IMG/VR virus record: IMGVR_UViG_3300032046_004423
Location: 31,358-95,357 of that record
Strand: one strand, 5' to 3'
DNA length: 64,000 nt
Origin: a virus
Taxonomy: Duplodnaviria; Heunggongvirae; Uroviricota; Caudoviricetes
Made by a program: the position numbers and the translations under genes. Below the pieces are notes generated by a model. That model saw only the letters and a program-made list of their open reading frames with translations, was not told where the DNA came from and searched no databases. Of the stretch, positions 13,693 to 47,863 are shown in pieces. Each line of letters opens with the position of its first letter. The stretch's first letter is position 1.

Positions 13693-13876
13693 AGATGCAA
13701 TTCTTTTTGCTTGCAGGAGTCCTACTTATAGCAGCAGTTGTAGGGAATCTCCTCACAAAGAAGTATCCTAAGTTACTAGGAGCAGTTTGGTTTATTCTTC
13801 CAGTATGCTGTGTTGGGGTAGGTATCTATGGGATTGTAGTAGTAATAGGAGCACTACAGAGTTTGGAGGGGAAATA

Positions 13877-24713: not shown

Positions 24714-26561
24714 ATGAAGATTAGTCTAGCTGAGCTCCCTTTTTACAGTATCCAAGGAGAAGGTGTATACCAAGGAATACCGACTACCTTTGTAAGACTA
24801 CAGGGGTGTAATCTACTAACTCACTGCAGCTGGTGTCTGGTTGATGGTTTAGTTACATATTCTAATAAAGTAGGCAGTGATATTAGTAGGGTTAAGATAG
24901 GTGATAGATTATTAGCTTGCAGCAACCAGGATGAGGTTACAGAAACTGTAGTAACTCAAGTTTTTTCTAGAGAAGTTGAGAACTATTTACTACTAGTCCT
25001 CCCGGAGGGTAGTTCTAGATTTGACCGGGAAAGGTTACTGAGAGTAACTCCCGAGCACCCCGTTATGACTACTCATAGCTGGAAGAGGGCAGAGGAATTA
25101 GTTCCAGGAGATGAGTTATACTATTTATCTGTAGCTCATCAGAATTCAGTAAGAATGACTCTTCACAATCCTCTGTTTAATCCCGAAGTAGTTTCTAAAA
25201 AAATGAGGTCAACTAACTATGAAGAGATAGGCAGGAAGATTTCTAAAGCTAGACTAGCTTTCACTCCAGAGGAGTGGGATGAGATAAATGAGAAAATGCT
25301 AAGCTCTAGAATGGGAGATAGTCCGGAAGCCTCACTCAAGAGGTTTGAGAGTGATACACTGGAATGGAAGCAAGCAAGGGATAGTTTATTTGAGAAGTTT
25401 AAGCAGAGAAAGCATAAGCTGGAACGCTTAGTGGATTGGAGGAAGTTAGCTGGTATGCAGGAAGGGTTATACGATAGTAGTGGAAGAAGGGTATTCTCAG
25501 AAGAGCATAAAAGGGCAATCTCAGAGGTTAAGAGTGAGAATCCTACTAGGCTCTTCGGTAGTGACAATCCGAACTGGCAAGGAGGAATTTCCTCCTATAG
25601 TAGGTGGACATCCAGATTGGAGAGAGAGGCAGTTTATGAAATCCTAACTGGGAGGGATGGGGAGATATGCCAAGCTGAAAGCTGTAATAATAAAACTGAC
25701 TTAGTTATTCACCATGAGGATTTTGATATAACCAATGACTCTGATAATAACTTAGTACTACTCTGCAGGTCTTGTAACAGTTCGGTTAATCATGGAAGAT
25801 ACCCTCTTAAACTAAAGTCCGGGAAAGTTTGCCCTATTCTAGCCGTGAAGAATGGACTACCGATAGTAGAGATTAGGAAAATTAGCAAAAAGGTGAGGGT
25901 ATATAACCTGCATTGCGAGCCTTATAATAACTACTTCGTTAATGGTATCCTATGCCACAACTGTGATACTGCTTACGCCCAAAATGGTAGTAAAGGTATC
26001 TTAATGGAAGTAGAAGATGTGCTCAGTCAGTGTGCTAAGCTAGAGGGAAGGACGTTTAAGCACTGGGTATGTATTACTGGTGGGGAGCCTCTATTTCAGC
26101 CTGAGGCTCTCCATGAGCTAGTTAAAGGACTAAGAAGGTATGGATTCAGAGTTGAGATAGAAACAAACGGAACCATTTCTAAACCCTATTGGTGGACTCT
26201 AGCTAACTGTTGGGTAGTAGACATTAAATGTCCCAGTTCTGGAGTATGTGGAGCTAGTTTGGTTGAGTGGTTTAACTCAAGGGTAGATGACCAGATAAAA
26301 TTTGTTGTTGGTAGCAAAGAAGATTTAAACTTCGCTAAAGCTATGATTATGAAGAATATAGCTAGAAATCCAGTAGTTCTAGTTAGCCCAGTTATTATAC
26401 TTGGAAAATCCACCAAAATACTAACTATTGATAGCCAGGAGTACCAAGACCAGTTTGGAATGTTGTGGATGCAGGAAGTAGTTGAATTTTGTAAAGAATT
26501 AAAGGTAAGATTTAGTTTGCAAGTACATAAAGTTGTATACGGTAACAAAAAGGGAGTATAG
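24714..26561 (+). CDS. queE: 7-carboxy-7-deazaguanine synthase QueE (radical SAM) interrupted by an intein
   Basis: Exteins [30 protein letters not shown] + CDTAYAQ...WVCITGGEP...VVYGNKKGV align with B. subtilis QueE (GCDYSCSWCDSAF...LLWGNKRGV). The spliced product would be about 239 aa. Confidence 0.85.
   Translation: [615 protein letters not shown]
24834..25961 (+). mobile_element. Intein (376 aa) with an HNH homing-endonuclease domain, inserted before the third cluster-ligand Cys of QueE
   Basis: Starts with C (CLVDGLVTY, block A). Block B is [10 protein letters not shown]. The HNH motif is [29 protein letters not shown]. It ends NGILCHN followed by +1 Cys (CDT). Confidence 0.75.
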
Positions 26562-26591: not shown

Positions 26592-27029
26592 ATGGATATT
26601 TTCTTTTGGACTAGGCATGATGAGCATGGTTACTGCTCCAACTTTTATGGGTCTCCTATTGAGGTAAATGGGAAAACTTATCCTACCGTTGAGCATTTCT
26701 ACCAAGCAAGTAAAACTCTAGTTCCCGAGGAGAAAGAGATGATTAAAAACCTACCTACTCCAAAGGAGGCAAAGTTTGCTGGATATCATGTAACCCTTAG
26801 ACCTTACTGGGATGATATTAAGTACAACATAATGCTAGTAGGCTTGAGAGCAAAATTTACTCAGCATGAGGACTTAAGGATGAAGCTACTCAGTACTGGT
26901 AGTTCTATACTGCACGAGAATAGCCCCTGGGATATATACTGGGGTTATGCAAAAGGGAAAGGATTGGATATGCTTGGTAAAGCCCTAATGCAGGTAAGAT
27001 ATGAATTACAGGAAAGAGGGAAGATATAA
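26592..27029 (+). CDS. NADAR domain protein (YbiA-like N-glycosidase / guanine ADP-ribose hydrolase family)
   Basis: FFWTRHDEHGYCSNFYGSPIEVNGKTYPTVEHFYQASK ... LRAKFTQHEDLRMKLLSTG ... SPWDIYWGYA matches the NADAR/DUF1768 pattern. Confidence 0.7.
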   Translation: MDIFFWTRHDEHGYCSNFYGSPIEVNGKTYPTVEHFYQASKTLVPEEKEMIKNLPTPKEAKFAGYHVTLRPYWDDIKYNIMLVGLRAKFTQHEDLRMKLLSTGSSILHENSPWDIYWGYAKGKGLDMLGKALMQVRYELQERGKI

Positions 27030-27955: not shown

Positions 27956-28495
27956 GTGAGACTGAAGTTTTTCCCCAATATGAAGCTAACCATTGAGCCG
28001 ATTCCAGAAAGTACTTGGGGAGTTAGTTTAGCTAACTTATTACCTCCCCCGGTTTGGAATGACCTAAGAAAGGAAGTCTATGAGGGGTTTAACTACGCCT
28101 GTGCTATCTGTAAGTCAGCTGATAAGCAGTTACATTGCCACGAGAGATGGGGCTTTGATGATAAAGCAAGAATACAAAGATTACTAGGTTTCCAGTGTTT
28201 ATGTGTTGACTGCCATAACATAAAGCACTGGGGAAGAACAGTAGCAGAGGCACATCGTAATGGGGATTCCGAAATCCTTATAAGGTTGACTAAGCACTTC
28301 TGTAATGTAAACGGTTGTACCACCTCTGCTTTCACACTCTATAAAGTTGAGATTGGTAACATAATGCAGAAGAGAAACAGGTACAAGTATAAGGTAGATT
28401 TTGGTAAGTTTAGACCAGATTTAGTTGAGGAGATTTGGAAACGGCAGAGAAGGACTAAGACACATGGAAAAGAAGAGTCGCCCCAAGATTACTAG
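27956..28495 (+). CDS. HNH endonuclease
   Basis: CAICKS...LHCHERWGFDDKARIQRLLGFQCLCVDCHNIKH is an HNH core with two CxxC pairs. Confidence 0.55.
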   Translation: MRLKFFPNMKLTIEPIPESTWGVSLANLLPPPVWNDLRKEVYEGFNYACAICKSADKQLHCHERWGFDDKARIQRLLGFQCLCVDCHNIKHWGRTVAEAHRNGDSEILIRLTKHFCNVNGCTTSAFTLYKVEIGNIMQKRNRYKYKVDFGKFRPDLVEEIWKRQRRTKTHGKEESPQDY

Positions 28496-28832
28496 AGGAG
28501 AGACTCATAGAGTTACCACTGGATGTGGTGGACTATATATTACTCCTTGCTGGGATCCGGATGATGGGGCTCTAGTCGAAGTATTTGCTGTACTTGGTAG
28601 GACTGGTGGCTGTGCCCACTGCCAGTTAGAAGCTATAACTAGAGCAGTCTCATTAGGATTAAAATACGGTATTCCGGTTAGTGAATACACTGATGAGCTA
28701 AGAGGCCTAAGATGCCCCAAATCAGCATGGGAAAGTGGTGAGCATATACTGAGTTGCCCGGATGCAATAGCGAAAATATTGGAAAAGACAAAAGGGGGAC
28801 GGGATGCAAGTAGGGATAATAGTACCCATTAA
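28464..28832 (+). CDS. stand-alone TSCPD domain protein
   Basis: TTGCGGLYITPCWD...GGCAHCQLEAITRAVSL...RCPKSAWESGEHILSCPDAIAKIL includes the eponymous SCPD motif. The start was chosen at the internal MEKKSR. Confidence 0.5.
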   Translation: MEKKSRPKITRGETHRVTTGCGGLYITPCWDPDDGALVEVFAVLGRTGGCAHCQLEAITRAVSLGLKYGIPVSEYTDELRGLRCPKSAWESGEHILSCPDAIAKILEKTKGGRDASRDNSTH

Positions 28833-29490
28833 GTATCTTAATCTTAGTACTACAAAACTACATTTATGCTATACTACTTTGCTCTCAAACAAGACTTATC
28901 TCAACTTTTATAAAGATAGGGAAGGAACCGTTATACTTGACTATTCCCCAGGACTACCAAGGAGGCCAGACTTAGATAAGCTACTAGTTAGTATCAAGCT
29001 GATAAAACCATCCCTAGTAGTCCTTCCCAGTATTGACTACTCATCCAATAGGACAATATCCTTAGCTGGAGATTTTATAAGGCTAAGCAAGTTCAAAAAG
29101 TTAATTGGTGTAGTACAAGGATTAGACTTGGACACTCTTAATGAGTGCTATAGTTTTCTAAGAAATCATTGTGGTATTATCGGTTTGCCCAGCCCACTGG
29201 AAACTATTGCTAGACGAGATGAGATTATAAGAGACTTAGGAATCAAAGAGAAGATACTCTACTTAGAAGTTTATTCTAATCCTTATGAGGAGATACCCCC
29301 ACCTAACTCGTTTGGCATTTGCACATCCTTTCCAGCTAGGCTAGCAGCTGACCTAAGGAAGTTAACTGAATATACTCCTACACCATCCTCGCTGGATTTT
29401 TATAAGGATAGTCTGGTAGAAAAACTAGTTAAAGCCAATATAGAAGGATATTTAGATGTAGTTAAGTATAGCTGCGGAGCAAAGGGCTAA
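28804..29490 (+). CDS. second minimal TGT/DpdA-like paralog (possibly lacking the nucleophile Asp)
   Basis: It aligns with the 6682 ORF: VILDYSPG, VVLPSIDY, IGVVQG, GIIGLPSP. At the position of KSIDTGSP it has NSFGICTSFP with no Asp. Confidence 0.4.
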   Translation: MQVGIIVPIKYLNLSTTKLHLCYTTLLSNKTYLNFYKDREGTVILDYSPGLPRRPDLDKLLVSIKLIKPSLVVLPSIDYSSNRTISLAGDFIRLSKFKKLIGVVQGLDLDTLNECYSFLRNHCGIIGLPSPLETIARRDEIIRDLGIKEKILYLEVYSNPYEEIPPPNSFGICTSFPARLAADLRKLTEYTPTPSSLDFYKDSLVEKLVKANIEGYLDVVKYSCGAKG

Positions 29491-29512: not shown

Positions 29513-30226
29513 ATGATAAGTAAAAGTTTATGTCTATGCAGCGGTGGCCTAGACTCATCCCTGGTCCTACTTAAACTTTTAGAATCTAACCTTGAGGTTA
29601 CACCTTTCTATGTTGACTATAATCATTGGTCTACTGAGGGAGAGCTATCTACACTAAAGGATTTCATTTCTTGGATTAGACAACATAAACTAAGTAGGAG
29701 TCATCTAGTTAATGGTAGCCTCGCCGACCTGGTAATAGTAAAAGCAGACTTAGGTCTGCGTATTGGTGGAGTTTGGGGTAGGAGTATAGCTCTTGTTGGT
29801 CTTGCTTCTATGTGGGCATTTACTCATGGTAATGACTATAGTTATATAGCTATGGGTAGTCATAAGGGAGATATATGTCCTGACTGTAGGCCTGGTCTTT
29901 TTGATATGGAGTTAGATGCAGTCCTTAAAGAGGCTACTGAAAGTAAACTTAGTCTGTTTCTACCAATTAGAAATTATTCCATTGAGGAGATAGGAGTAGA
30001 ACTTTTAGGTGGTAAGTATGAAGTACCATACGAATTAGCATATAGTTGTTACTGGTATCCACCATGTGGTTATAAAAGCAAGAATGAAACTTATAGATGC
30101 CCAGGATGTAGAAGAAAAGTAATAGCAATGAAAGCAGCTAGTATAGAAGACCCTGCTAAGCTAGATTTACCCAACTGTAAGGAAAGATCTTACTATCCCG
30201 GGAGTGCAGAAAGGACGGTTTACTAG
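29513..30226 (+). CDS. QueC-like PP-loop ATPase paralog
   Basis: LCSGGLDSS, HKGDICPDCRPGLFD (cf. DYSGYPDCR), AYSCYW (cf. TWSCY) and CPGCRRK (cf. CGxCxxC). It diverges from the 3525 QueC. Confidence 0.6.
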   Translation: MISKSLCLCSGGLDSSLVLLKLLESNLEVTPFYVDYNHWSTEGELSTLKDFISWIRQHKLSRSHLVNGSLADLVIVKADLGLRIGGVWGRSIALVGLASMWAFTHGNDYSYIAMGSHKGDICPDCRPGLFDMELDAVLKEATESKLSLFLPIRNYSIEEIGVELLGGKYEVPYELAYSCYWYPPCGYKSKNETYRCPGCRRKVIAMKAASIEDPAKLDLPNCKERSYYPGSAERTVY

Positions 30227-31021: not shown

Positions 31022-33016
31022 GTGTCGTCTTTAATTGTTTTAGGTATCATAGGCATAGTATTTCTTATACTGGTCCTACCCTCAATTAGAGTAATAGGAC
31101 CTACGGAAGTAGGCTTGGTAACCAAAAGGTTTGGAAGGAAGTTATCTCCAGATAATCCTGTAGCTTTAGAAGGGGAGGCTGGTTATCAGGCAGACTTGCT
31201 AATGCCTGGATGGAGGTTTAAATTCTGGGTTGTCTACGATGTAGAGAAACATCCTTGGGTACAGATACCTGCTGGTAAGATTGGGGTTGTAGTAGCCCAG
31301 GTAGGAAAACCCCTTCCTATAGGAGCTAAGTCAGCCAAGTATGAGAGGGAGATAAACATAAAGGATGTCCGAAGTTTTATGGGGGGAGTAGAAGCCGAGA
31401 GGGAAGGTAAGAAAGTTATAGTATTTGGGCAGAAAGGAGTTCAAAGGCCAGTTCTATCCCCAGGAACCCTACTACCACTCCATCCTATTGCTTTTCTAGT
31501 TATTACCTCCGAGAGGTGCTACGGAAAGCCTATCGACCCAGACCTTCGTGAGTGCTATCATAAAGGTAGCCTTAACTGTGAGGATTTTGGCTTAAAGCAG
31601 GAATGGTTAGACGTAAGAATTATTAAGCCAGAATTTAGGGGGGAAGGAAAAATAGTTGATATGGTCGGCATCATTACAACCTTGGAGGGAGATCCATTAC
31701 CACCAGGAGACATCGCTGGTAGGCTAGAAGGTTTTAAGGACATAGCAGATGCAATGGCGGGGGGAAAAGGTGACTCCGACTTAATTGAGTTAATCATAGG
31801 TTCCAAAAACCAGAAGCATAACAACTATCAGGACTTCCAAGCTTTCCTAGATAATGGAGGTAAGATAGGTTTACAGCATGACCCACTACTTTATGGGGCC
31901 TATAACTTAAATCCCTTCCTTATCAAGGTAGAGGCAGAACCAATGTTGGTGGTAGAACAGGGGGAAGTCGCAGTTGTAAAGTCTTACGTTGGATTACCTA
32001 CTGAGGCTGGAAAAGTAGGAGAAGAGGAGTTCAAGTTCGGTACTATTGTCAGGCCAGGGCATCGAGGGATCTGGAATGAGGCCTTGGTAACTGGTAAGTA
32101 TGCTATAAATCCTCACTGCTACCAGTGGGAGAAGGTGCCAGTGTCTATCATCAACCTTAACTGGGCAGAGGGGAGCTTAAAAGCTTATGAGTGGGAATCC
32201 CAGCTAAGCCCCATTGATGCAAAGAGTAGGGAAGGATTTATCTTTCATATTGACTTACAAGTCCAGATTCATATCGCTGCGAAAGAGGCTCCTGCTGTTA
32301 TTTCAATGGTTGGAACTATGGCTAACTTAACTAACCAAGTTTTGCAGCCAGCAGTAGGGAATCACTTCAGGGATAAGCTCCAGAGTATGCCTGCTGTTAT
32401 GTTCATAGAAACCAGGCAGCTGGTACAGAGAGAAGCTCAAGCCCACATTACCTCAGAGCTAGAAAAATACCATATTGAGACTCGTGGTGTTTATATCCAG
32501 AACGTTATTCTACCAGAAAAACTTGTTGAGGTATTAACCAATAGGGAAATTGCGAACCAACAGATAGATACCTATAAGAAGCAAAAAGAAGCCCAGGACC
32601 AGAGAGTTGAGACTGAGAAAGCTACTGGTACAGCCGATATGCAGAAAGAACTAGCAAAAGCTAAGGTAGGAGTAGGCATAAAGACCTTTAATGCTGAGGC
32701 TAGGGTACAAGAAGCAGGTGGTGAGGCTTCTTATATACAACTTACAGGTGAGGCTGAAGGAGCGAGACAGAAAGCTATCGGTGTAGGAAAAGCAGAGGGG
32801 TATAAAGCTCAGGTAGAAGCATTAGGGCAAGAGTCAACAGCATTTGTCAACGTGGTAACTAGTCTATCTGACAAGCAGTTGAAGTTTGTGCCAGATGTTA
32901 TGGTAAGTGGTAGCGGGGATGCCCTAGGTGGGTTGGCAGGAGTCATTATGAAGAGACTCCTAGGCGACCAGAGGAAGGAGAAGGTAGAGGAAGTAGCAGC
33001 AACAACAAAGAAATAA
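31022..33016 (+). CDS. flotillin-like SPFH/band-7 protein (664 aa)
   Basis: N-terminal TM plus IRVIGPTEVGLVTKRFG (SPFH start). The C-terminal half has E/A/Q/K-rich coiled-coil flotillin-type repeats (AEARVQEAGGEASY..GEAEGARQKAIGVGKAEGYKAQVEALG). Confidence 0.65.
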   Translation: MSSLIVLGIIGIVFLILVLPSIRVIGPTEVGLVTKRFGRKLSPDNPVALEGEAGYQADLLMPGWRFKFWVVYDVEKHPWVQIPAGKIGVVVAQVGKPLPIGAKSAKYEREINIKDVRSFMGGVEAEREGKKVIVFGQKGVQRPVLSPGTLLPLHPIAFLVITSERCYGKPIDPDLRECYHKGSLNCEDFGLKQEWLDVRIIKPEFRGEGKIVDMVGIITTLEGDPLPPGDIAGRLEGFKDIADAMAGGKGDSDLIELIIGSKNQKHNNYQDFQAFLDNGGKIGLQHDPLLYGAYNLNPFLIKVEAEPMLVVEQGEVAVVKSYVGLPTEAGKVGEEEFKFGTIVRPGHRGIWNEALVTGKYAINPHCYQWEKVPVSIINLNWAEGSLKAYEWESQLSPIDAKSREGFIFHIDLQVQIHIAAKEAPAVISMVGTMANLTNQVLQPAVGNHFRDKLQSMPAVMFIETRQLVQREAQAHITSELEKYHIETRGVYIQNVILPEKLVEVLTNREIANQQIDTYKKQKEAQDQRVETEKATGTADMQKELAKAKVGVGIKTFNAEARVQEAGGEASYIQLTGEAEGARQKAIGVGKAEGYKAQVEALGQESTAFVNVVTSLSDKQLKFVPDVMVSGSGDALGGLAGVIMKRLLGDQRKEKVEEVAATTKK

Positions 33017-33936: not shown

Positions 33937-36270
33937 ATGGATCCTTTAGAATTATGTAAATGTGAGGAATGCCCTCTAAAAGATAGTAAAAAAGTACCTG
34001 GTGAGGGCACCGGTTCCGATGAAAACTATAATATAGTACTAGTTGGTATTGCACCTGCTAAGACTGAGGTAAGGGAAGGAAGGCCTTTAGTTGGCTGGTC
34101 GGGAACCTTACTAAGGAAGACACTTGCTAAACTTGGTGTAACTAGCTTCTACTTAACTAATACTTTACTATGTCAGCTACCAGAGGATATTAGGGATAGT
34201 GAGCAAAGGTTAGCTATAAATTGTTGCAAAGATAGACTGTTTAAAGAGGTTGAATCTAAAAATCCCGAGATAGTTGTTGCAATGGGTAATATACCTCTTG
34301 AGGCACTTACTGGTATTGGTTACAAGATTAAGAGTGTTAACGGTAGGATATTACCTGGACTGATTTGTCCAGTATTACCAGTTATACATCCTGCCTCACT
34401 TAGTAGGCGAGCTGAGGAGTTCTATGACTTTGTTGATGGCTTAAAGTCTGCTCCTAAATATCTAACTGGAACTTACCAGCTAGCTAGTATACCTCATAGA
34501 ACTATCATTAACGAGGATAATATTGGTGAAGTGTTGCAGGTGCTGGATAAGTCTGAACTCCTAGCAGTAGATCTTGAGACAACTGGTAGAGGTTTTTACC
34601 CCTATGGAAAGGACCCAGATAAGATAAGATGTATATGTCTAGCTACTGATGAGAAAACAGCTTATATATTTCCGGGTGAGAGTTCACCTTATTTTGAACA
34701 ACATCAAAACTATGTCTATGATAGTAGATTGAAGAATCTACTTAGTAGGAAGAAGTGCATATTCCATAATGGGCCTTTTGATGTTGGTTTCCTTAAGCAA
34801 GCAGGCTACGATGTAAAAATCTTCTTTGATACCTTACTAGCTCACTATATGATAGATGAGAGGCAGTATAGCCATGGTCTAAAGGTCTTAGCAGGTAAGT
34901 ACTTGGGTGCTCCTAACTGGGAAGAGGATATAAAAGAGTTTTTGCCCCATAAAGCTAGCAGTTACGACTTAGTCCCAGACGATAAGCTGTATGAGTATGC
35001 AGCTTATGACGTTGCCTATACATACCAGCTATCCGAAGGAGCTGGCTTTAGAAGAAAAGTAGCCAATACCCAACTATATAAGGAGATTTTAAACCCTTGT
35101 GCCAATATGTTTGCTGAGATTAGGCATAGAGGAATACCTGTAGATGTTGGGTATTTGATGGAGTTGGATGGTGTTCTCGAGAAGGAAATGGATGAGAAGC
35201 TAGAGGAGCTTGAAAAACTAGTAGGACGTTACTTAAATCCTTTCTCTCCCCAAGAAGTAGCAGAACTACTGTATGACAACCTTGGCTATCAGCAGGTTCC
35301 TGGATTCGGTAGATCGACTGCTGCTAGAATCCTACGGATGTTAGGAGGTGAGATTTGTGATAAAATACAAGAGGTAAGAGAGTTTGGCAAGCTAAAATCT
35401 ACCTATGTCGTGGGTGTGGCTAACTTCATAGATGATAGTTTTAGAATACATCCATTCACTAATCTATCGGGGACAGTAACTGGTAGGATCTCAATGTCTG
35501 ATCCAAGTATGATGAACGTTAGTTATAGTGGTGGTGTAAGAAAGCTTTACCTTCCAGAACAAGGGCATTTAATACTTGAGGCTGACCAGAAACAGATTGA
35601 GCTAAGATGCTATGCTATAACTAGTGGTGATAGTCATCTACAGGACTTACTAGCAAGTGGAGGTGATCCTCATCAGCTGGTGCAAGACCAGTTGGTTAAA
35701 AGAACTAGCCTATCTAGTAAATGGTCCGGGCATGAAGGTAGGGTTAAAGCTAAAGCTGGGGTATTTGGTAGGTTATACGGTAGAGGTAAAAGAGATTTTA
35801 TGATGAGTTATAAACTAAACGAGAAAGATGCTGACGAGTTAGTAGCTACAATTGATACAATCTTCCCGTCAGTTAAAGAATATCTAGCTAGAGTAAAGAA
35901 GGAAATTCACGAAACAGGAGTACTAACATCTTACTTTGGTAGGAAGAGAAGATTTGGACTAGTACTTGACGAGAATAAGCATGAGTGCTACAGACAGGGA
36001 GCTAACTTCTACATCCAATCTATGGCATCAGATATTAACCTTTACTGTATGCTTCACTTATGGGATTTAAAGGATAAGTGGGGAATTTACCCACTCTTCC
36101 CAGTTCATGATAGTATAGTTATAGATATACCAGATGTCTCGGTAGTGCCTGAGATTAAGAAGGAGCTAGAAGAATACTCCAGAACCTTAGTACAGGAGCA
36201 GATAAAGTTTAAAGTAGATTGCTCAGTTGGTACTAACTGGGGAGAAACTAAGAAGTTGGAGATTGGGTAA
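33937..36270 (+). CDS. polA: Family A DNA polymerase with an N-terminal family-4 UDG-like domain and a 3'-5' exonuclease
   Basis: UDG4-like region: VPGEGTGSDENYNIVLVGIAPAKTEVREGRPLVGWSG (motif A with E replaced by I), VIHPASL (HPS-like), Cys ligands C7, C9, C12 and CC. Exo I is DLETTG. Pol motif B is RVKAKAGVFGRLYGRG. Motif C is PVHDSIVID. Confidence 0.9.
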   Translation: MDPLELCKCEECPLKDSKKVPGEGTGSDENYNIVLVGIAPAKTEVREGRPLVGWSGTLLRKTLAKLGVTSFYLTNTLLCQLPEDIRDSEQRLAINCCKDRLFKEVESKNPEIVVAMGNIPLEALTGIGYKIKSVNGRILPGLICPVLPVIHPASLSRRAEEFYDFVDGLKSAPKYLTGTYQLASIPHRTIINEDNIGEVLQVLDKSELLAVDLETTGRGFYPYGKDPDKIRCICLATDEKTAYIFPGESSPYFEQHQNYVYDSRLKNLLSRKKCIFHNGPFDVGFLKQAGYDVKIFFDTLLAHYMIDERQYSHGLKVLAGKYLGAPNWEEDIKEFLPHKASSYDLVPDDKLYEYAAYDVAYTYQLSEGAGFRRKVANTQLYKEILNPCANMFAEIRHRGIPVDVGYLMELDGVLEKEMDEKLEELEKLVGRYLNPFSPQEVAELLYDNLGYQQVPGFGRSTAARILRMLGGEICDKIQEVREFGKLKSTYVVGVANFIDDSFRIHPFTNLSGTVTGRISMSDPSMMNVSYSGGVRKLYLPEQGHLILEADQKQIELRCYAITSGDSHLQDLLASGGDPHQLVQDQLVKRTSLSSKWSGHEGRVKAKAGVFGRLYGRGKRDFMMSYKLNEKDADELVATIDTIFPSVKEYLARVKKEIHETGVLTSYFGRKRRFGLVLDENKHECYRQGANFYIQSMASDINLYCMLHLWDLKDKWGIYPLFPVHDSIVIDIPDVSVVPEIKKELEEYSRTLVQEQIKFKVDCSVGTNWGETKKLEIG

Positions 36271-36271
36271 T

Positions 36272-36718
36272 ATGCAGCATAAGGTAGATATTAACTACAG
36301 ATTTACCTGCCATGACTGCGGAGTTAGGGAAGGCCAGATACATAAGCTAAATTGTGATATGGAGAGTTGTCCATTCTGTGGTAACCAGCTTATGAGTTGT
36401 GACTGCTGTTACGAGAAGTTAAAGCTTGACTGCTCTGAAGGTACTTGGACCTACGAGAATGGGCTAACAGATAAGGAAGAAGCTCAGTGGTTAGACATGC
36501 TTACTAGAAGGGGAAGGGTACCCTACTTCCAAACGATAGTAAGATGTTATAGGTGTGGCTGCCATATCAATCATACTCAGCTCCATAAGTGGATGGTATC
36601 AGATAAAGAGTGGAGAGCAGTAGTACCAATAGATTGGCAAAATGAAGTACTATGTTTTGATTGCTTTAACTGGATAAAGAGAATAAGAGAACAGGAGGAT
36701 ACATTGGATGGATATTAA
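36272..36718 (+). CDS. Cys-rich zinc-binding protein
   Basis: CHDCG, CPFCG, CDCCYEKLKLDC, CYRCGC, CFDCF. Confidence 0.4.
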   Translation: MQHKVDINYRFTCHDCGVREGQIHKLNCDMESCPFCGNQLMSCDCCYEKLKLDCSEGTWTYENGLTDKEEAQWLDMLTRRGRVPYFQTIVRCYRCGCHINHTQLHKWMVSDKEWRAVVPIDWQNEVLCFDCFNWIKRIREQEDTLDGY

Positions 36719-37229
36719 ACCCTATCATCGGAAATACCCTGAGATAACTAAGCTCTTGTATGAGAAAGGAATTCTAGCTGGTTACCCTATACAGATAGAT
36801 AGGAGTGACCTTCAGTATGCTGAGGGTATTGATATAGTTTATACTCTAAAAGGTATGACACCTGCTAAGTTTAAAGCATATGCAGACCCCTTACTATGGG
36901 CTGCCTATGAAGAAGCGAGGAGATACGATGAGGAACCAATAAAATTTGCTAGGTTTGACGTTCAGCTTAATAGGACAGAAAAAGGCAGGAAAACAATAAC
37001 TAATCCAGTAAGGGGGTTTACAGCTAGAGGTCACGATGATGTAAGTGTTATGGTATTTGGGGAAGAAGCTATGGGTGCTACAGTACCTGAAGGAATGGCT
37101 AAGCCCTTTCTAGTTAATAGGGTGGATGAGATACTAGCATTGACGGAGAAGTACATGAAAGACTACCTTCAAAAGCAAAGACCGTATAAAGTTATTGCTC
37201 TAGTAATAAGTATTAGAAGAAAATTTTAA
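36708..37229 (+). CDS. hypothetical protein between the two polymerases
   Basis: 173 aa, no motif. Start overlaps the upstream stop. Confidence 0.4.
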   Translation: MDIKPYHRKYPEITKLLYEKGILAGYPIQIDRSDLQYAEGIDIVYTLKGMTPAKFKAYADPLLWAAYEEARRYDEEPIKFARFDVQLNRTEKGRKTITNPVRGFTARGHDDVSVMVFGEEAMGATVPEGMAKPFLVNRVDEILALTEKYMKDYLQKQRPYKVIALVISIRRKF

Positions 37230-37246
37230 AGGGAGGTTAACTGCGT

Positions 37247-38917
37247 GTGGTTCCAACTTTCGATATAGAGGCCGTTCAATGGACCCAGCCAATTGCTGTA
37301 GGGTTCTTTGATGGGAGAGAGTACCATGAATTCTTAAAGATAAACGAGGAGTGCGATGTAATCTGGGAGTTTCTAAAGTTCATAAAGAAGTATGAAGGTA
37401 TAAAAGTCTATGCTCATAATGCTGCTGGATATGATAATAAGTTTATCTTGGACAGTTTAACTAAGCATGACCAGATAGTTAGGTTTGTTGCAGGCTTAGG
37501 TGCTCTGATTTGGATAGGGCCAAATATCTCATTTGAAGATAGCTACCTCCTACTTAGTAGAAAATTATCTGTATGCTGCGAGGCTCTCGGTGTATCCCAA
37601 AAACTAGAATGGAGGCATGACGAAACTAAGAACCCCTGGGAGATGCAGCCCATACTTGGTAGTTTTAGTGAGTATCTTAAGCGCGACTGCATAGCTCTTA
37701 GTGAGGTACTAGATTCCTTTACTGAGAAGCTACTTACTAACTTTGGTATTACACCATCCTCTACTCTAGCACTAACAGCTATAAAGGCGTTCAATAAGCG
37801 CTTCTATCCAGTTAGAAAGATAGCCTCGAACGTGGAGTTTGAGACCTTTATTAGGGCAGCTACCTATGGGGGTAGGAATGAGGTATATAAGAGGTATGGT
37901 GAGAATATTAACTTCTACGATGTTAAAAGAATGTTTATGTCCTGCTATGATACACCTGTTCCCGTAGGTAGAATGAGATGGAGAAGTCCCAATATAGATA
38001 AAGGAACTCTAGCAGAGGCTATAGTTAAAGTCCCTGATGCAAGTATAGGACCCTTACCATATAGATTTAATGGTAGGCTAATATTTCCTATAGGAGAATT
38101 TAGAGGCTGGTGGGATATGGTTGAACTGAGATATGCTGCACAGCTTGGAGTTGATATAAAGCTTATAAGGCAGCTAGAGTGCGATGAGAAGCCAATACTA
38201 AAATCCTTCTGTGAGTTTGTGAACAAGCTTAGTGAGAACTCCAATTTAGATATGGGAAGGATTTGGAAGTTGTTTGGCCTAAGACTGAGTGGTAAGTTTG
38301 GTCAGCATAGGATTAGAACTGAGATAAAGCACGTGAAAGATATAAAAGAGAACGAGTATAATCCTATGGATAAAAATGAGATATACCACGAGGTAACATC
38401 TAGTCTTGCTAGCTTTAAATCTCCATATATTAAACCAGCTATAAATATGAGAATAAGAGCTGAAGCTAAAGTTAGGCACCTAGAGAAGTTACTGGAAGCC
38501 CAAGATGTTTACTACTGTGATACTGACTCAGTATATACTACAGTAGAGTTACCTACTGGGAATCATATAGGTGATTTAAAACTAGTTGAGTTTGCAGTTA
38601 GAGCTTACTTTGTTGGTAGTAAGTTTTACGGCTATGTAAATAGCAGTGAAATATTAAAACAAAAAACTGCTGGCTATAGAGACTACCAGCTGACTGAGTA
38701 TGACTTTAAGAGAGTACTAAAAGGGGAAGAAATACCCTGTACTTTTAGTAGGATAGAAAACTGGAAGGAAATACTAAAAGGAAGAGGTGTTAATTTAGTT
38801 AAACACTCTTTTACTTTTAGACAGCCAAATTTTAGTAATAGGATACTAGGAGAGATAGAAACCTCACCTATTAAACTAATTGATGGGAAGGCGGAGGAGA
38901 TTCCCAGTATTAGATAA
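37247..38917 (+). CDS. protein-primed-type family B DNA polymerase (phi29-like pPolB)
   Basis: Exo I FDIE, Exo II YAHNAAGYDNKFIL, Exo III YLKRDCIAL, pre-motif B KLFGLRLSGKFGQ (cf. phi29 KLMLNSLYGKFA), motif C YYCDTDSVYT. Confidence 0.8.
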   Translation: MVPTFDIEAVQWTQPIAVGFFDGREYHEFLKINEECDVIWEFLKFIKKYEGIKVYAHNAAGYDNKFILDSLTKHDQIVRFVAGLGALIWIGPNISFEDSYLLLSRKLSVCCEALGVSQKLEWRHDETKNPWEMQPILGSFSEYLKRDCIALSEVLDSFTEKLLTNFGITPSSTLALTAIKAFNKRFYPVRKIASNVEFETFIRAATYGGRNEVYKRYGENINFYDVKRMFMSCYDTPVPVGRMRWRSPNIDKGTLAEAIVKVPDASIGPLPYRFNGRLIFPIGEFRGWWDMVELRYAAQLGVDIKLIRQLECDEKPILKSFCEFVNKLSENSNLDMGRIWKLFGLRLSGKFGQHRIRTEIKHVKDIKENEYNPMDKNEIYHEVTSSLASFKSPYIKPAINMRIRAEAKVRHLEKLLEAQDVYYCDTDSVYTTVELPTGNHIGDLKLVEFAVRAYFVGSKFYGYVNSSEILKQKTAGYRDYQLTEYDFKRVLKGEEIPCTFSRIENWKEILKGRGVNLVKHSFTFRQPNFSNRILGEIETSPIKLIDGKAEEIPSIR

Positions 38918-39002
38918 GAACTCTCCTACCGCCCCCAGGACTGATCCCTTTACTACTTTGGTTTGGGCTTGGGTTTACTTTTTTGCACTATCTCACCTCC
39001 TT

Positions 39003-39020
39003 AACTAGTAATTACTAGTT
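39003..39020. repeat. 18-bp perfect palindrome aactagtaattactagtt in the convergent intergenic region
   Basis: It is self-complementary. It lies in the 300-nt pyrimidine-rich gap where plus- and minus-strand gene blocks meet. Confidence 0.6.
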
Positions 39021-39533
39021 TATCTACAAACTAACCTTTCTTTCCGCCTGCCCTCCCCCTGCTATAACCTTTCACGTGTACCTTCTTACCCCCTCGGGAA
39101 TAGGAAAAGGACTTTACGTGAACCGCATGACCCCTCTGTTTACCTTTCCTGCTTTTAGCCACTTAACAAAAAACCTCCTTTTAAATTTACTATCTAAGGT
39201 TAACTTACCCTTCTTAAGTTGGTAACTGCTCTTGCTGGGGTGCCACTGGGGTAATATACCCTAAGTCTGCCAAGTGCCTTAGAGCAGTCACTACTATACC
39301 GGGACTAATATTTCCAACTGTAGTAAGCTCATCAACCTCGGCTATTCCTCCCATCTCAGCAAGTACCGTCATTATCTTTTGTTCCGTAGGATTTATTGAC
39401 CCCAGACTACCACTCTGAAGTCTCTGAACTCCTATAGGTGTTAACTGCCAGTACTGAACCTCAGGGGCACCAAAGATATCCATAGTTTTACTTGCACTCT
39501 TCATAGCATTACCTCCTTTCCACGACTTTCTTC

Positions 39534-39944
39534 TTACAGCTTAAACCTACTAGGATCAATTCCGTATTTCTTAGCTAGATCTGGATTAGCCCTAGCCATT
39601 TCCCTAAGGAAACCCCTCTTGGTCTTACCTCTCTCAGACCTCTTCTTTTTTCTCTCAGCTTGGGTCATCTTAGGACCCTTCTTCCTGGGCTCTAAACCGT
39701 ACTTCTTTAGTACTTCTCGTCTAGTTGCCTTCCTCTCATCCCTCCTCTTTTTAGCAGCAGCTTTCTTCTCCTCAGGAGTATCATACTTCTTCTTTTTTCT
39801 CTTAAGTCCAAGAGCTTCAAGCACTTCCTTCCTCTTTTGTGCTAGTGTAAGGCTCTCTGACTCTATGACCTTGGAGAAGTCCAATGGCTCTGCTACTACT
39901 GGTACTAGTCCTGTTGATTGTGGTTTCGGCGCTCTCTTCGACAT
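39534..39944 (-). CDS. highly basic K/R/E-rich protein
   Basis: KRKKKKYDTPEEKKAAAKKRRDERKATRRE. Low complexity. Confidence 0.4.
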   Translation of the reverse strand: MSKRAPKPQSTGLVPVVAEPLDFSKVIESESLTLAQKRKEVLEALGLKRKKKKYDTPEEKKAAAKKRRDERKATRREVLKKYGLEPRKKGPKMTQAERKKKRSERGKTKRGFLREMARANPDLAKKYGIDPSRFKL

Positions 39945-40208: not shown

Positions 40209-41330
40209 CTAACTAGTCCTAGTAGCTGTACTTCCTGGCCTGGATGTAAGTGGGATTCGTCTAAATTGGGGCTTCCTTATCTTAGGAAGCATCGCTCCCT
40301 TTAGATGCTCTAAACCTCCCGCACCTCCAGTACTAAACATTGGCTGTAAGGGTCTTCTCAGGCCCGACAGGTCAACATTGGGAGTACCAACCCTGTACGC
40401 TTCAATCGGTAAGCTAGGAACTAAACCTCTTGCTTTGCTAGGCTTCCCTCTAGGTAGGATAGCTTGTGCAGTACCTGCTACACCTAGCATACTTACAGCA
40501 GCCATCTCTTGGCCAAAACCTCCTATAGCTTTGGAAATCCTGTAAGGTGTCGACCTTTCTCTCTTTCGCTGTTTAGCCTCAGCTATCTCCTCCTCAATCA
40601 TGACACCACCAAGTTTTTGGATTCTAGCCTCAGCTAATCTTTCCTGAGGGGATAAGGTAACCTCGATCTCCCTCCATTCCCACTGCTTAGTTTGGTCATT
40701 CCATTGGTGAACTAGTTTCTTCTTTTTCTTAGGTATATTACCTTCCCAGAGCTCAAAGGCAGCTTCGGCTTGAGTTTTAAAAGATTCCCCAGCCCTCTTC
40801 TCATAGCGTTTTCTCTCCTTCGGGGGTAGTTTCCCTATCTTCCGTGCAAGTTCTTCCTCCTCAACCTTTCTCTGGGCTCTCAGCCTTTCGTATTCCATCC
40901 TCTCCGCAGCCTCATTAGCAGCCCTCTGACGAGTGAACTCGTCCTCAGCTCTTCTCTTTGCCTCATCCTCTTTAAACTTTTGGTTTTCTGCTTCTCCTTC
41001 AGACCCACTAATAGTTCCCTCTCCAGGTACCTCCCTGTACTCAGCTTCTGTAATAGGCTCAGGCTTAGGCTCAGCTTCAGGCCTGGGCTTTCTACTTAGC
41101 TTCTCCTTAACCCACTTAATAGGGTTCCAGTTGTGGGCAGTAACCACAGCCCTGTAACCACCATCGGGGTCTTTCCCCTTACCAAGCACTCGGAAGTTTA
41201 CTAAATCATTCTTCTTGGCAAACTCCTTACTAGAACGTATTAAGGCATTCAGATCCTTCATAGAGTTTGCTTGAAGGATAGATGTTTCCTCCTTTCCTTG
41301 GTACCTGCGTGCAATAACCTTTTCCTTCAT
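40209..41330 (-). CDS. charged coiled-coil protein (373 aa) with a G/A/P-rich C-terminus
   Basis: Central E/R/K-rich heptad region. No catalytic motif. Confidence 0.4.
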   Translation of the reverse strand: MKEKVIARRYQGKEETSILQANSMKDLNALIRSSKEFAKKNDLVNFRVLGKGKDPDGGYRAVVTAHNWNPIKWVKEKLSRKPRPEAEPKPEPITEAEYREVPGEGTISGSEGEAENQKFKEDEAKRRAEDEFTRQRAANEAAERMEYERLRAQRKVEEEELARKIGKLPPKERKRYEKRAGESFKTQAEAAFELWEGNIPKKKKKLVHQWNDQTKQWEWREIEVTLSPQERLAEARIQKLGGVMIEEEIAEAKQRKRERSTPYRISKAIGGFGQEMAAVSMLGVAGTAQAILPRGKPSKARGLVPSLPIEAYRVGTPNVDLSGLRRPLQPMFSTGGAGGLEHLKGAMLPKIRKPQFRRIPLTSRPGSTATRTS

Positions 41331-43241: not shown

Positions 43242-44177
43242 TTATAAGTGCGTTTCCTTAACTGCTATATCCTCTCTCTCTCCAACAAATACGGGTGCTC
43301 TTAGTCTTCCTCTTGAACCAACCTTCATATATTCTACCTTAGCAAAAACCTTTTTGCCACTATCAATTTTCCTCTTTAAATCTGCAAGCTCCTCATCAGT
43401 AAATCCCGTCCCAACTTTTGCTACTTCCCTTACTTTATGCGTTTTCGAGTCATAAACTCCTACTCTCAAGGTACCAATACCCTCTCTTTTACCCTTACCT
43501 TTTACATAGCCTAATACTACAGTGTCAGCTTCTTTCTTAAACTTTAACTTTCTCCAGTTTTTACTCTTTCCATAAGTGTAAGGCGTTCCAATCTTTTTAA
43601 GGACAATGCCCTCGGAAATACCACCCTTCTTCTCTTCTTTAGTAAACTTTTCTGGATTCTTAGAGTAACTAACAACCTTTACTTCTACACCTTTAGGAAT
43701 AGTGCTTTCTAGTATTTTTCTTCTCTCAAGTAAATCCTTATTTACCACCCACTGGTTATTTTTGTTTAGGATATCAAAAGCACCAAACTTTAGAGGGTAC
43801 CTTTTTTGTCTTCTCCTAGCTTCTTCAGGGTCTTGCAGTAAATCCCTTCTAAGAAAATCTTCAAAAGTTCCTACTCCACCACTGCCTTCGTAGACTTCAC
43901 CTTGGATTATAGTTAATCCCTTAGTTTTAATCTTTTTAGGTTCATCATCCGTTAACTCAGGATAGATATCTGTCTTGTTAGTTCCTCTTCTATTAACATA
44001 CGCTACTGCTCCATCTATAAGATACATAAGGGTAAGGGAGCCATCTAACTTTCTCTCAGCAATCCAACCATGCCTAGGTATCTCCTCAGTATCAGTTGGT
44101 CGCATGGGTTCAATAAGTGGAACTTTCCTAACGACTCCATCACTAAATCTAATCCTTATGTACCTTCTTCTTGCCAT
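43242..44177 (-). CDS. lig: ATP-dependent DNA ligase (compact, T7-like)
   Basis: Motif I AERKLDGSL (KxDG), III GAFDIL, IV EGIVLKK, V WRKLKFK. Confidence 0.85.
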   Translation of the reverse strand: MARRRYIRIRFSDGVVRKVPLIEPMRPTDTEEIPRHGWIAERKLDGSLTLMYLIDGAVAYVNRRGTNKTDIYPELTDDEPKKIKTKGLTIIQGEVYEGSGGVGTFEDFLRRDLLQDPEEARRRQKRYPLKFGAFDILNKNNQWVVNKDLLERRKILESTIPKGVEVKVVSYSKNPEKFTKEEKKGGISEGIVLKKIGTPYTYGKSKNWRKLKFKKEADTVVLGYVKGKGKREGIGTLRVGVYDSKTHKVREVAKVGTGFTDEELADLKRKIDSGKKVFAKVEYMKVGSRGRLRAPVFVGEREDIAVKETHL

Positions 44178-46506: not shown

Positions 46507-46974
46507 TCACCATTTCACCTCCTTTCCAGTATAGCCAACCCTTTGCCTAGCTACCCTATCTAGTCTTTCTATCATACTCCTAGTTAGGCCCAGCCCTCTA
46601 GCGAGCCTCTTACTCCTTCCTATTGACCACTTTATTTTACTAGTCTCAATTCGGTACTTTAGAGCAAAATAATCAGCACACAACTCCCTAAATAAGTTAA
46701 GGGCGTGATACTCATACCAATTCCAAGTATTTATAGCCTCATCGACGTCAACTGGGAACTTTATATGGCCCAGCTCATGGGTGAATACTCTAGCCGATTC
46801 CTTGGTTGGGTAACCTTTCTTTATTGCTATATATCTAGGCTCCTCAGTCTCCTCAGATATGCCAGCCGCTCCTTCAAATTGTCCCTCCTCTTCATGGGTC
46901 ATATACCTAACTACAATGGGCATCATCTTAATGACCAACAAAACTAGGAATCCCATCAACGTAAACCATTCCAC
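46507..46974 (-). CDS. HExxH zincin, member 1 of a four-member ImmA/IrrE-like paralog family (N-terminal TM)
   Basis: FTHELGHIKFPVD. N-terminal hydrophobic helix. Confidence 0.4.
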   Translation of the reverse strand: MEWFTLMGFLVLLVIKMMPIVVRYMTHEEEGQFEGAAGISEETEEPRYIAIKKGYPTKESARVFTHELGHIKFPVDVDEAINTWNWYEYHALNLFRELCADYFALKYRIETSKIKWSIGRSKRLARGLGLTRSMIERLDRVARQRVGYTGKEVKW

Positions 46975-47863
46975 TTAAAGAAACTATTCTTTCTATCTGA
47001 ACAGTATAGGTTATCCCATCTGTGACAACCACAATCGTGCCATTGACATCGGTGCCATAGATTTTAGCTCCTATTTCCTCTAGAGCTTCAATAGTCTCTG
47101 CGTGAGGATGACCATACGGGTTACCAATCCCTGCCATATAAATAGCAACTTCCGGGGTAGTCACCGCCAGAAAAGCTGTTGAAGAAGCCGTCCTAGAGCC
47201 GTGGTGCCCCACTTTGAGAATTTCTACATCTGGAACAATGCCCTCCGTGAGCATACTTGCCTCAGCTTCCTGCTCTGCATCCCCAGTAAACAAGAAGTCA
47301 ACCTGTCCATAGCTAAGGCTCAAAACAATAGAGTTATCATTAGTGGTACCACTCAAACTAGCAGGATTGAGTACATTAAAGGTAAGGTTATTAACCTGGA
47401 TAGTATCTCCTCTCCTAGCCTCATATACCTGAACCCCTTCAGAGTTGACCGCTGACATGAACTGGGAGTAGGTTTCGGAAGTACTTATGTCTCCATTAAA
47501 CCAGATTTCGTCAACTTTAAAAGCATCTAAGACTCCGATTAGCCCCCCAATATGGTCAGCATGGGGATGAGTAGCTACTACGACTTCAAGTGGCCCATCA
47601 ATATAGTTATCAATATAGCCAACTACATCTGAGGACTTTCCTCCCCCATCAATTAGTACTTCGATATCACCAAGGTCTATAAGTATAGAATCACCCTGCC
47701 CAACATCAATGAAGTGGACTGTCAAGGCAGCTGGACTGGTAGTTATGATACTACCATCATCTGAGGTAGGTAAAGTAGTATTAGTTACGGGGGTACACCC
47801 TACAAGTCCAAACAGTAATGAAATTACCAGTATGGAAACTAGACTTATAGCCTTAGATATCAT
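46928..47863 (-). CDS. metallo-beta-lactamase-fold lipoprotein
   Basis: Lipobox LFGLVGC. HPHADHIGG (HxHxDH), then VGHHGS. Confidence 0.75.
   Translation of the reverse strand: MISKAISLVSILVISLLFGLVGCTPVTNTTLPTSDDGSIITTSPAALTVHFIDVGQGDSILIDLGDIEVLIDGGGKSSDVVGYIDNYIDGPLEVVVATHPHADHIGGLIGVLDAFKVDEIWFNGDISTSETYSQFMSAVNSEGVQVYEARRGDTIQVNNLTFNVLNPASLSGTTNDNSIVLSLSYGQVDFLFTGDAEQEAEASMLTEGIVPDVEILKVGHHGSRTASSTAFLAVTTPEVAIYMAGIGNPYGHPHAETIEALEEIGAKIYGTDVNGTIVVVTDGITYTVQIERIVSLSGMVYVDGIPSFVGH

Follow-up and report, generated by a model that had tools for sequence, protein, structure and literature searches.

Why should a single virus-like genome carry two replicative-type DNA polymerases of different families side by side? 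The question is raised by a 64,000-nucleotide (nt) stretch, hereafter the window, covering positions 31,358-95,357 of IMGVR_UViG_3300032046_004423; its source contig measures 109,607 bp, so that both genome ends and ~45 kb of the source genome fall outside the scans described here. In the window a family A polymerase (PolA) fused to a uracil-DNA glycosylase (UDG)-like domain is followed, on the same strand, by a phi29-like family B polymerase of the protein-primed type (pPolB), with two small open reading frames (ORFs) between them (Table 1). We consider it somewhat probable that pPolB and a 173-amino-acid (aa) partner initiate replication at the ends of a linear genome, and that PolA is a co-essential second polymerase.

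Two polymerases in one conserved gene block

All four ORFs were confirmed at the coordinates first given for them, and the family A enzyme has the make-up that the original prediction, made from the sequence alone, had given it. Three Pfam matches, all exceeding the curated cut-offs, follow one another in one polypeptide: UDG (residues 25-161, E 1.4e-17), DNA_pol_A_exo1 (189-366, 6.8e-17) and DNA_pol_A (406-770, 2.8e-60), which is the arrangement that defines the UDG-fused phage PolAs. The protein belongs to the PHROG 17 DNA polymerases (E 8e-110), and its residues 9-708 align in tblastn to the polymerases of SPO1-like Bacillus phages and of a few other phages at 25-29% identity, the best matches being those of the SPO1-like Bacillus phages, with 85-90% of the protein covered. 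All of the exonuclease motifs are present (Exo I DLE, Exo II NGPFD, Exo III YAAYD). In the polymerase domain, motif A reads D-Q-K-Q-I-E-L-R, motif B R-x-K-A-K-x-x-x-F-G-x-x-Y-G and motif C H-D-S; the Asp and Glu of motif A, the R/K/F/Y/G residues of motif B and the His-Asp of motif C are kept, and the Glu position of motif C is occupied by Ser, Ala or Asp. With these catalytic residues in place, PolA shows no sign of being an inactive polymerase and looks functional.

The UDG-like domain aligns with the Thermus thermophilus enzyme (1ui0, E 5e-14) and also matches PDB 9qhs. As the original prediction had noticed, the Fe-S cysteines (a CxxC pair and two further Cys) and the HPA motif are kept and the Glu of motif A is replaced, G-I-A-P-A standing where 1ui0 has G-E-G-P-G. 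Since Ile or Met occupies this position in 7/7 of the family PolAs that are readable at the motif, the replacement is a family trait. A domain that has the Fe-S cysteines and HPA but lacks the motif A Glu would not be expected to be an active family 4 glycosylase; the uracil or lesion sensor of the original prediction is a putative role for it.

The second polymerase matches Pfam DNA_pol_B_2, the organellar and viral protein-primed type, at 127.2 bits against a cut-off of 25.8 (E 1.1e-36). When it is aligned with phi29 gp2 and the Bam35 and AP50 polymerases, taken from their GenBank records, the Exo I, II and III motifs and the YCDTDS motif C with which it had been credited at the outset all fall into register: Exo I is D6 and E8, Exo II H57-N58...D63, Exo III Y143 and D147, motif A D225, motif C Y423-C-D425-T-D427-S428 and the KxY motif K459-F-Y461. 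Residue conservation was counted in an alignment of 118 full-length family members, where the Asp, Glu, Tyr and Lys residues of the exonuclease and polymerase sites are conserved at 97-100% (D225 118/118, D425 116/118, D427 118/118, K459 117/118 and Y461 118/118); the Asn of Exo II is less well kept (69/118). Both polymerases are real and, as far as their sequences tell, catalytically intact.

The nucleotide pocket of this pPolB is altered. The string KLFGLRLSGKFG, which had been labelled pre-motif B, corresponds to phi29 KLMLNSLYGKFA and is in fact motif B, in which other residues stand in place of the Asn and Tyr of Kx3NSxYG. Throughout the family the motif takes the form K-x-F-G-[LIV]-[RSA]-L-[SCT]-G-K-F-G-Q: the Asn position is L, I or V in 118/118 members and the Tyr position S, C, T, V or A in 117/118, a single member having Tyr. 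Motif A, canonically D-x-x-S-L-Y-P, is D-x-x-x-M-[YF]-x-S-C-Y in the family. We also aligned 12 distant pPolBs (24-30% identity) from contigs of 2-18 kb; motif B Asn is present in 12/12 of them and Tyr in 11/12 (the exception being L024), both residues are present in phi29, Bam35 and AP50 as well, and most of these enzymes retain the canonical motif A. Because these distant small-contig enzymes keep the Asn and Tyr, the altered pocket can be taken as a derived character of the family. The motif B Tyr has been described as invariant across family B polymerases, and the phi29 mutant Y390S is active and loses discrimination opposite 8-oxoguanine (PMC1976434).

An AlphaFold2 model of pPolB, built from 12 family members, has a predicted local distance difference test score (pLDDT) of 68 (~90 over the exonuclease half, 45-88 over the polymerase half). 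Its top PDB match in Foldseek is phi29 DNA polymerase (E 3e-16, template-modelling (TM) score 0.55-0.62) over the full length (561-587 columns), whereas RNA-primed PolBs reach a TM of only 0.3-0.4. Sequence searches of the PDB, with the single query or with a family profile, returned no polymerase match, and it was the fold search alone that gave phi29. By sequence, the named polymerases nearest to it are those of AP50 and Bam35 (24-26% identity), and there are matches to Muninn virus and Methanosarcina spherical virus too. The interval between motifs A and B is 116 aa long (134 in phi29) and includes beta-rich elements at 238-315, and a beta-hairpin is placed at 356-386, between motifs B and C. 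In the model these elements fit TPR1 and TPR2, an assignment of moderate confidence. Lack of TPR1 and TPR2 and of the catalytic Asp pair had been named as what would speak against a protein-primed enzyme; D425 and D427 are present and the TPR-like elements can be modelled.

A primer-independent PolB (piPolB) was considered and ruled out. Such enzymes are marked by SxTTDG in motif C and by KH-X8-KTRG in place of KxY (PMC5695915). Neither signature occurs here, and the type is excluded because YCDTDS and a canonical KxY, K-[FL]-Y in the family, are present.

With respect to its distribution, pPolB has homologs in at least 174 clusters at 90% in public metagenomes, with identities of 47-100% among the 120 matches listed, many of them on contigs of 50-119 kb. 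Judged by its sequences, the family is a large uncultivated group of ~67-120 kb elements that carry both PolA and pPolB. Twelve related loci were compared; gene order was readable in ten, and ORF-level blastp covered seven. All of the loci that are long enough (10/10) have PolA, the 173-aa gene and pPolB in this order on one strand, at identities of 45-60% for pPolB and 36-56% for PolA. The genes between PolA and pPolB differ among relatives and include those for thymidylate synthase, HD, NUDIX and MazG-like proteins and methyltransferases. In all ten loci pPolB is the last gene ahead of a convergent junction. In the window, the guanine-cytosine (GC) skew passes there from +0.21 through -0.07 to -0.30, the sign flipping exactly at the junction, and GC content stays uniform. 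The junction occupies the same position in relatives; in the two with defined ends (IMGVR_UViG_3300017971_002799 and a P0077-type genome, L033/L034 and L054/L055) it lies, with the pPolB stop, at 52-53% of genome length. Right after the junction are two Lys/Arg-rich low-complexity basic proteins (39534-39944 and 40209-41330, minus strand) that are kept in relatives, the second (373 aa) having a 538-aa homolog in the first of these two relatives. They could be DNA-condensing, core or end-binding proteins.

The constancy of this block bears directly on the alternative, raised in the original prediction, of an embedded selfish module; pPolB would then belong to a self-replicating unit, for instance a small pPolB element, inserted into a phage genome that PolA replicates. 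Such an origin would suit the facts that pPolBs are typical of small mobile elements, that the distant relatives mentioned above reside on 2-18 kb contigs and that the gene sits at a module boundary, the convergent junction. Against this, position and orientation are constant in 10/10 loci across all of the divergence just given. Moreover, the window has no flanking repeats around pPolB, nor any relevant long repeats, its GC content is uniform, neither an integrase nor a second pair of inverted terminal repeats (ITRs) surrounds the gene, and the ITRs described below are at the ends of a whole 87.8-kb genome and not around pPolB. The synteny contradicts an embedded module; with the uniform GC and the missing flanking repeats it leaves this reading unsupported, and we find it scarcely credible.

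The two ORFs between the polymerases had been proposed as terminal-protein or accessory candidates, and they have fared differently. Neither belongs to a Pfam or PHROG family. The Cys-rich ORF has no homolog in any of the 12 related loci, and for this lack of conservation (0/12) it is dropped as a terminal-protein or accessory candidate. The 173-aa protein is present in 11/12 loci at 34-55% identity, and its homologs, which have no Pfam domain, are confined to contigs of the pPolB/PolA family. In the window and in several relatives its gene adjoins or overlaps the pPolB start codon, just as the terminal-protein genes of phi29, Bam35 and AP50 adjoin or overlap the start of their polymerases. 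Its structure is predicted (pLDDT 84, predicted TM score 0.80) to be an alpha/beta fold with a flexible basic K-G-R-K loop; searches of this model against PDB and viral structure sets gave weak, generic matches only, with no viral structure among them. By its position it is the leading candidate for a terminal protein or for an accessory factor that binds DNA.

The genome ends of a relative

Replication from terminal proteins, as the original prediction had envisaged it, called for a look at genome ends for inverted repeats, and this was possible in a relative, IMGVR_UViG_3300017971_002799 (87,793 bp), whose pPolB is 52% identical and whose gene order is that of the window. The first 24 nt of this genome recur on the opposite strand of the same contig near its right end, and the match extends further: nt 1-96 are a 100% reverse complement of the right end, in a copy that begins 112 nt inside the terminus, after which the arms diverge. 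The relative thus has an inverted terminal repeat whose arms match perfectly over at least 96 nt. The repeat is probably at least 208 nt long, because the left end is truncated in this assembly. A copy in the JGI collection proved to be the same contig and assembly as that of IMG/VR, and therefore gives no independent confirmation. With ITRs found in a genome of the same gene order, replication from terminal proteins gains support, and we infer inverted repeats at the ends of the window's own genome as well.

The positions of the contig ends tell the same story. The 87.8-kb genome is represented by three assemblies (87,777, 87,793 and 87,816 bp) that place pPolB at 44.66-44.71 kb and whose ends agree to within tens of bases; a second relative, with two assemblies (66,879 and 66,970 bp), shows identical offsets. 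Ends that coincide in this way are expected of linear genomes with fixed termini, not of circular or permuted ones; some of the coinciding assemblies probably share reads. The right terminus of the 87.8-kb relative (L048, last 112 nt) is very G-rich as assembled (GGGGGTGGGCGGTGGGTGGTGGGGGGGGTGG...), and may be either a real reiterated terminal sequence or a poly-G sequencing artefact. A motif of ~30 nt (374-406, 1618-1646 and 1721-1749; TTAGCA.CT.TTAGGAGGAGGCCA.C) occurs three times at the gene-poor left edge of the window, twice in direct and once in inverted orientation, and may be regulatory or origin-like.

Possible division of labour between the polymerases

Considering the phi29-fold pPolB, the coupled partner gene upstream of it, the ITRs and the fixed ends together, the simplest reading is protein-primed initiation at linear termini; and because PolA is equally conserved, equally intact and part of the same gene block, it would be a core component too. 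In the scheme that we infer, pPolB, probably with the 173-aa protein as terminal protein or accessory, would start DNA synthesis by protein priming at the inverted-repeat ends and would then extend by strand displacement, as in phi29 and the tectiviruses. The SPO1-type PolA would be a second, co-essential polymerase and no recent add-on: it could take over elongation, convert the displaced single strands, or serve recombination and repair synthesis, working with the RNase H, the ligase, the UvrD-like helicase, the annealing protein and the exonuclease of the element. Three roles of PolA come into question: (a) recombination and repair, with all of the replication left to pPolB; (b) elongation after initiation by pPolB; or (c) bulk synthesis from primers that are internal or derived from recombination, with pPolB only patching the ends, as at Streptomyces telomeres (PMC3273824). 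The first two are favoured by the failure to find a primase, the last two by the genome size, the degraded pPolB pocket and the presence of RNase H and ligase.

Several observations weigh against protein-primed initiation by this pair. The 173-aa protein resembles no known viral protein, is unlike the known terminal proteins and is shorter than these; none of its Ser, Thr or Tyr residues is strictly invariant, two members having Phe in place of Y160 and one lacking Y73. As terminal protein it stays at the level of a candidate, by position only. The ITR was seen in one relative and on one underlying contig, and the window's own ends lie outside the stretch. GC skew yields no clean replication signal: in the 87.8-kb relative the right arm is negative throughout, even over the plus-strand genes at 81-88 kb, and the left arm follows gene orientation. 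The missing motif B Asn and Tyr recall phi29 Y390S, the equivalent change, which relaxes nucleotide discrimination (PMC1976434), and the polymerase half of the pPolB model, at the pLDDT given above, is only moderately confident. An RNase H and an ATP-dependent ligase usually go with RNA-primed, discontinuous synthesis. Finally, the known protein-primed viral genomes are stated to be smaller than 50 kb (PMC4889955).

The last two points also count for a rival explanation, in which PolA is the bulk replicase, working by recombination-dependent or RNA-primed synthesis from internal sites, and pPolB and its partner only patch the 3' overhangs at the ends. SPO1-type PolAs are the replicative enzymes of their phages (bioRxiv 10.1101/2025.03.26.645540), and the element encodes a UvrD-like helicase, a Cas4/YqaJ exonuclease, an RNase H and an ATP-dependent ligase; RusA and a Rad52-type annealing protein come in addition in the 87.8-kb relative. 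In size the genome exceeds all known pPolB replicons 2-6-fold (PMC4889955), short, specialised synthesis would be a fitting task for a pPolB whose fidelity pocket is degraded, and there is a precedent in the Streptomyces linear replicons, where an internal origin is combined with protein-primed patching (PMC3273824). On the other hand, no primase or replicative helicase was found in the 64 + 70 kb scanned, no internal origin was identified and there is no viral precedent; and pPolB keeps a fully conserved proofreading exonuclease as well as the TPR2-like element linked to long processive synthesis. We take end patching by pPolB to be unlikely, if worth serious consideration.

A further rival starts from the DNA itself. 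The window encodes a complete 7-deazaguanine toolkit (two QueC, FolE, a QueF-like protein, an intein-split QueE and two DpdA-like proteins), and the element's DNA is probably modified at guanines. One could imagine that pPolB, with its altered pocket, has been recruited to a job other than initiation, such as copying or filling in at 7-deazaguanines or lesions, or late strand-displacement amplification, while the ITRs serve some other mechanism of end replication. The substituents of 7-deazaguanines lie in the major groove and the motif B Tyr is on the other side of the nascent pair, which weighs against such a role. The little-finger match is weak and that fold generic, no hairpin-telomere resolvase or other end-replication enzyme was seen, and protein priming is the simplest account of ITRs that occur alongside a pPolB of phi29 fold. 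A non-initiating pPolB thus appears distinctly improbable.

Our favoured reading, initiation by pPolB with PolA as co-essential partner, can be taken one step further, if only as a doubtful possibility: a two-polymerase relay, in which a pPolB that has abandoned the otherwise universal Asn and Tyr of motif B and is specialised in terminal-protein-primed initiation, with the 173-aa protein as primer or accessory, would hand over to a PolA with a UDG-like sensor domain, which would do most of the synthesis on 7-deazaguanine-modified DNA. Such a relay would take protein-primed replication past its ceiling of ~50 kb. The elements of 67-120 kb, linear and with ITRs, would then perhaps be non-tailed archaeal viruses related to the small pPolB viruses.

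Known systems, the kind of element and its other genes

The closest parallels are phi29 (Salasmaviridae) and the tectiviruses PRD1, Bam35 and AP50, with which the element shares a compact DNA_pol_B_2 polymerase of phi29 fold with Exo I-III, motif C and KxY, a small gene directly upstream that often overlaps it and, in one relative, a linear genome with ITRs. It differs from them in its size (~67-120 kb, against 10-20 kb), in the family A polymerase that is always present in addition, in a motif B without Asn and Tyr and in a motif A without Ser and Pro. The upstream protein, at 173 aa, is shorter than the phi29 terminal protein and dissimilar to it, and no capsid genes were recognised.

With the UDG-fused phage PolAs the element shares the order of N-terminal family 4 UDG-like domain, exonuclease and PolA. 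Such fusions are an established architecture with three groups: an N4-like group, in which the UDG catalytic residues are lost, a SPO1-like group, in which they are conserved, and a SP15-like group, with an active UDG that reads deoxyuridine ahead of the fork (bioRxiv 10.1101/2025.03.26.645540, citing PMC10201439). The element's enzyme has its motif A Glu replaced as in the N4-like group, although its overall similarity is to the SPO1-like PolAs, which keep the Glu. Unlike the SP15-like enzymes, it is without large inserts and a C-terminal domain, and it is paired with a pPolB.

That such a pairing is unusual, as had been suspected, is supported by the literature (PMC4889955, PMC11348598). Two polymerase families in one genome were reported in only 2/1,514 genus-level subtrees among 18,382 tailed-phage genomes, the extra enzyme being a divergent PolA and not a pPolB (PMC11348598). 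These phages, with divPolA1 or divPolA2 beside a regular DNA polymerase, resemble the element in the rare possession of two different polymerases. Their extra PolA, however, has an exonuclease that is inactive or absent, whereas here two full proofreading polymerases are adjacent and the second is a pPolB.

The piPolBs of pipolins (PMC5695915) are likewise pPolB-branch enzymes with TPR1- and TPR2-like regions outside the classical small viruses, and could in principle supply primers; they differ in the signatures by which that identity was excluded above. The linear replicons of Streptomyces (PMC3273824) are, like the element, large and linear, with ITRs, more than one polymerase and protein priming at the ends, the last of these being conjectural for the element, but they use the cellular Pol I and Pol IV with Tpg/Tap and no pPolB. 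Chaacviridae, considered as a precedent for a large virus with a pPolB, had to be discarded, being tailless viruses of 10-11 kb.

Protein-primed systems have been stated to be confined to genomes below 50 kb (PMC4889955; PMC5695915), and protein priming is viewed as a small-genome solution that needs almost no accessory proteins. The components found here are each of a known kind (a UDG-fused PolA, a pPolB, ITRs); their combination is not described in the literature searched, which is incomplete. If our favoured reading is true, the size range of protein-primed replicons grows several-fold, and polymerase hand-off or end patching could be studied in a natural, virus-like system, one that would also supply naturally evolved phi29-like enzymes whose altered nucleotide pocket might be useful for incorporating or copying modified bases. 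The family may also represent a new group of large viruses, possibly archaeal, or of linear plasmids.

Megablast of 15 kb of the window found no close relatives among GenBank phages. The ORFs of the 64-kb window and of 70 kb of the 87.8-kb relative (18 kb of which was unseen) were scanned for Pfam and PHROG families; in this material no HK97-fold capsid, portal or terminase was found, no primase or DnaB/gp4-type helicase, and no clamp was noticed. A match to a tail protein (phrog_7043; 46928-47863, minus strand) turned out to be a metallo-hydrolase of the metallo-beta-lactamase (MBL) fold, ComEC-like, 42% identical to a gene of Geobacillus phage GBSV1. Virus status rests on the IMG/VR membership of relatives and on phage-like genes, and the element may be linear plasmid-like rather than a virus.

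As to the host, there are weak hints of an archaeon. All three in-family matches among GTDB species genomes are archaeal metagenome-assembled genomes (MAGs: Thermoplasmatales, Bathyarchaeia and Woesearchaeota), pPolB matches archaeal viruses, and there is no enrichment of sigma-70 promoters or intrinsic hairpin terminators. The remaining hint is a conserved 222-aa P-loop ATPase with a faint Zot match (55347-56015, minus strand), possibly a packaging or morphogenesis ATPase, for which tblastn against 50,697 phage and archaeal-virus records gave matches in WyrdV1 and Muninn alone, both of them viruses of Asgard archaea. For pPolB and the ATPase alike, these pPolB-bearing viruses (Muninn virus, wyrdviruses) thus provide the only named matches or some of the few, and in-family contigs occur in archaeal MAGs; these viruses, however, are 12-16 kb in size and have no PolA, and the similarity is low (25-30% over part of the proteins). 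The PolA, RusA and Rad52-type genes look closer to those of bacterial phages.

Table 1. Features of the window discussed in the text (positions are those of the window)
Feature	Position	Strand	Basis or remark
UvrD-like helicase	8253-9191		
RNase H	12654-13163		
Cas4/YqaJ-type exonuclease	13787-14839		
7-deazaguanine DNA-modification genes (QueC paralogs, FolE, QueF-like, DpdA-like)	3525-4286, 6011-6580, 6682-7419, 9178-9615, 28804-29490, 29513-30226	+	
Conserved 228-aa protein upstream of PolA, possible DpdA-like DNA-guanine transglycosylase paralog	28804..29490	+	weak assignment
UDG-like / 3'-5' exonuclease / family A DNA polymerase fusion, 777 aa, SPO1-type architecture	33937..36270	+	Pfam, PHROG, tblastn
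Family 4 UDG-like domain, aa 25-161	34009..34419	+	alignment to 1ui0 and 1l9g
PolA proofreading exonuclease domain, aa 189-366	34501..35034	+	Pfam; family alignment
PolA polymerase domain, aa 406-770	35152..36246	+	alignment to Bst and Klenow polymerases; family alignment
Cys-rich ORF, 163 aa with TTG as start codon; in another assembly called from 36272, 148 aa	36227..36718	+	outside conserved module
Conserved 173-aa pPolB partner	36708..37229	+	position and conservation
phi29-fold, protein-primed-type family B DNA polymerase, 556 aa, altered nucleotide pocket	37247..38917	+	Pfam, Foldseek, motifs
Motif B, aa 341-353, K-LFG-L-R-L-S-GKFGQ	38267..38305	+	alignment with phi29, Bam35, AP50
Motif C Y-C-D-T-D-S, aa 423-428, catalytic aspartates	38513..38530	+	alignments
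Convergent junction directly 3' of pPolB	38918..39213	.	gene orientation and GC skew change sign
ATP-dependent DNA ligase	43242-44177	-	

Beyond the genes for DNA metabolism listed in Table 1, the 87.8-kb relative adds a Rad52-family annealing protein, a RusA-like resolvase and a BRCT-domain protein. The 228-aa protein is found in all 7 loci of the ORF-level comparison and is directly upstream of PolA in two of them (L006 and L010). It shares phrog_19058 with ORF 6682-7419, the pairwise E between the two being only 0.002; ORF 6682-7419 itself matches genes annotated as DNA guanine transglycosylase in Flavobacterium phages and has homologs in Campylobacter phage CP220. The QueE-like radical-SAM gene (615 aa, 24714-26561, plus strand) is apparently split by an intein with an HNH endonuclease: Pfam places Intein_splicing and PT-HINT within residues 57-416 and Radical_SAM from 414, PHROG matches are to QueE-like and HNH proteins, and in relatives QueE is uninterrupted, at ~217-237 aa.

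An HNH endonuclease gene (27956-28495, plus strand) overlaps a 135-aa ORF (28425-28832, plus strand) whose similarity to the large subunits of ribonucleotide reductases is limited to their C-terminal (TSCPD) part. Relatives have a full reductase of 683 aa at the same site, after a homolog of the HNH-like gene, and the reductase of the window genome may be reduced or disrupted. Just upstream of PolA is an SPFH/Band-7 (flotillin-like) protein of 664 aa (31022-33016, plus strand), an unusual viral cargo; a relative has, at 11.7-14.6 kb, a 508-aa SPFH-like counterpart beside an NfeD-like membrane protein, both assigned by eye. The window also encodes a TROVE/Ro60-like protein with a vWA domain (433 aa, 18049-19350, plus strand), a NADAR-domain protein (26592-27029, plus strand), an S-adenosylmethionine decarboxylase-like protein (52916-53329, minus strand) and several glycosyl- and methyltransferases (50433-51851 and 62302-63976).

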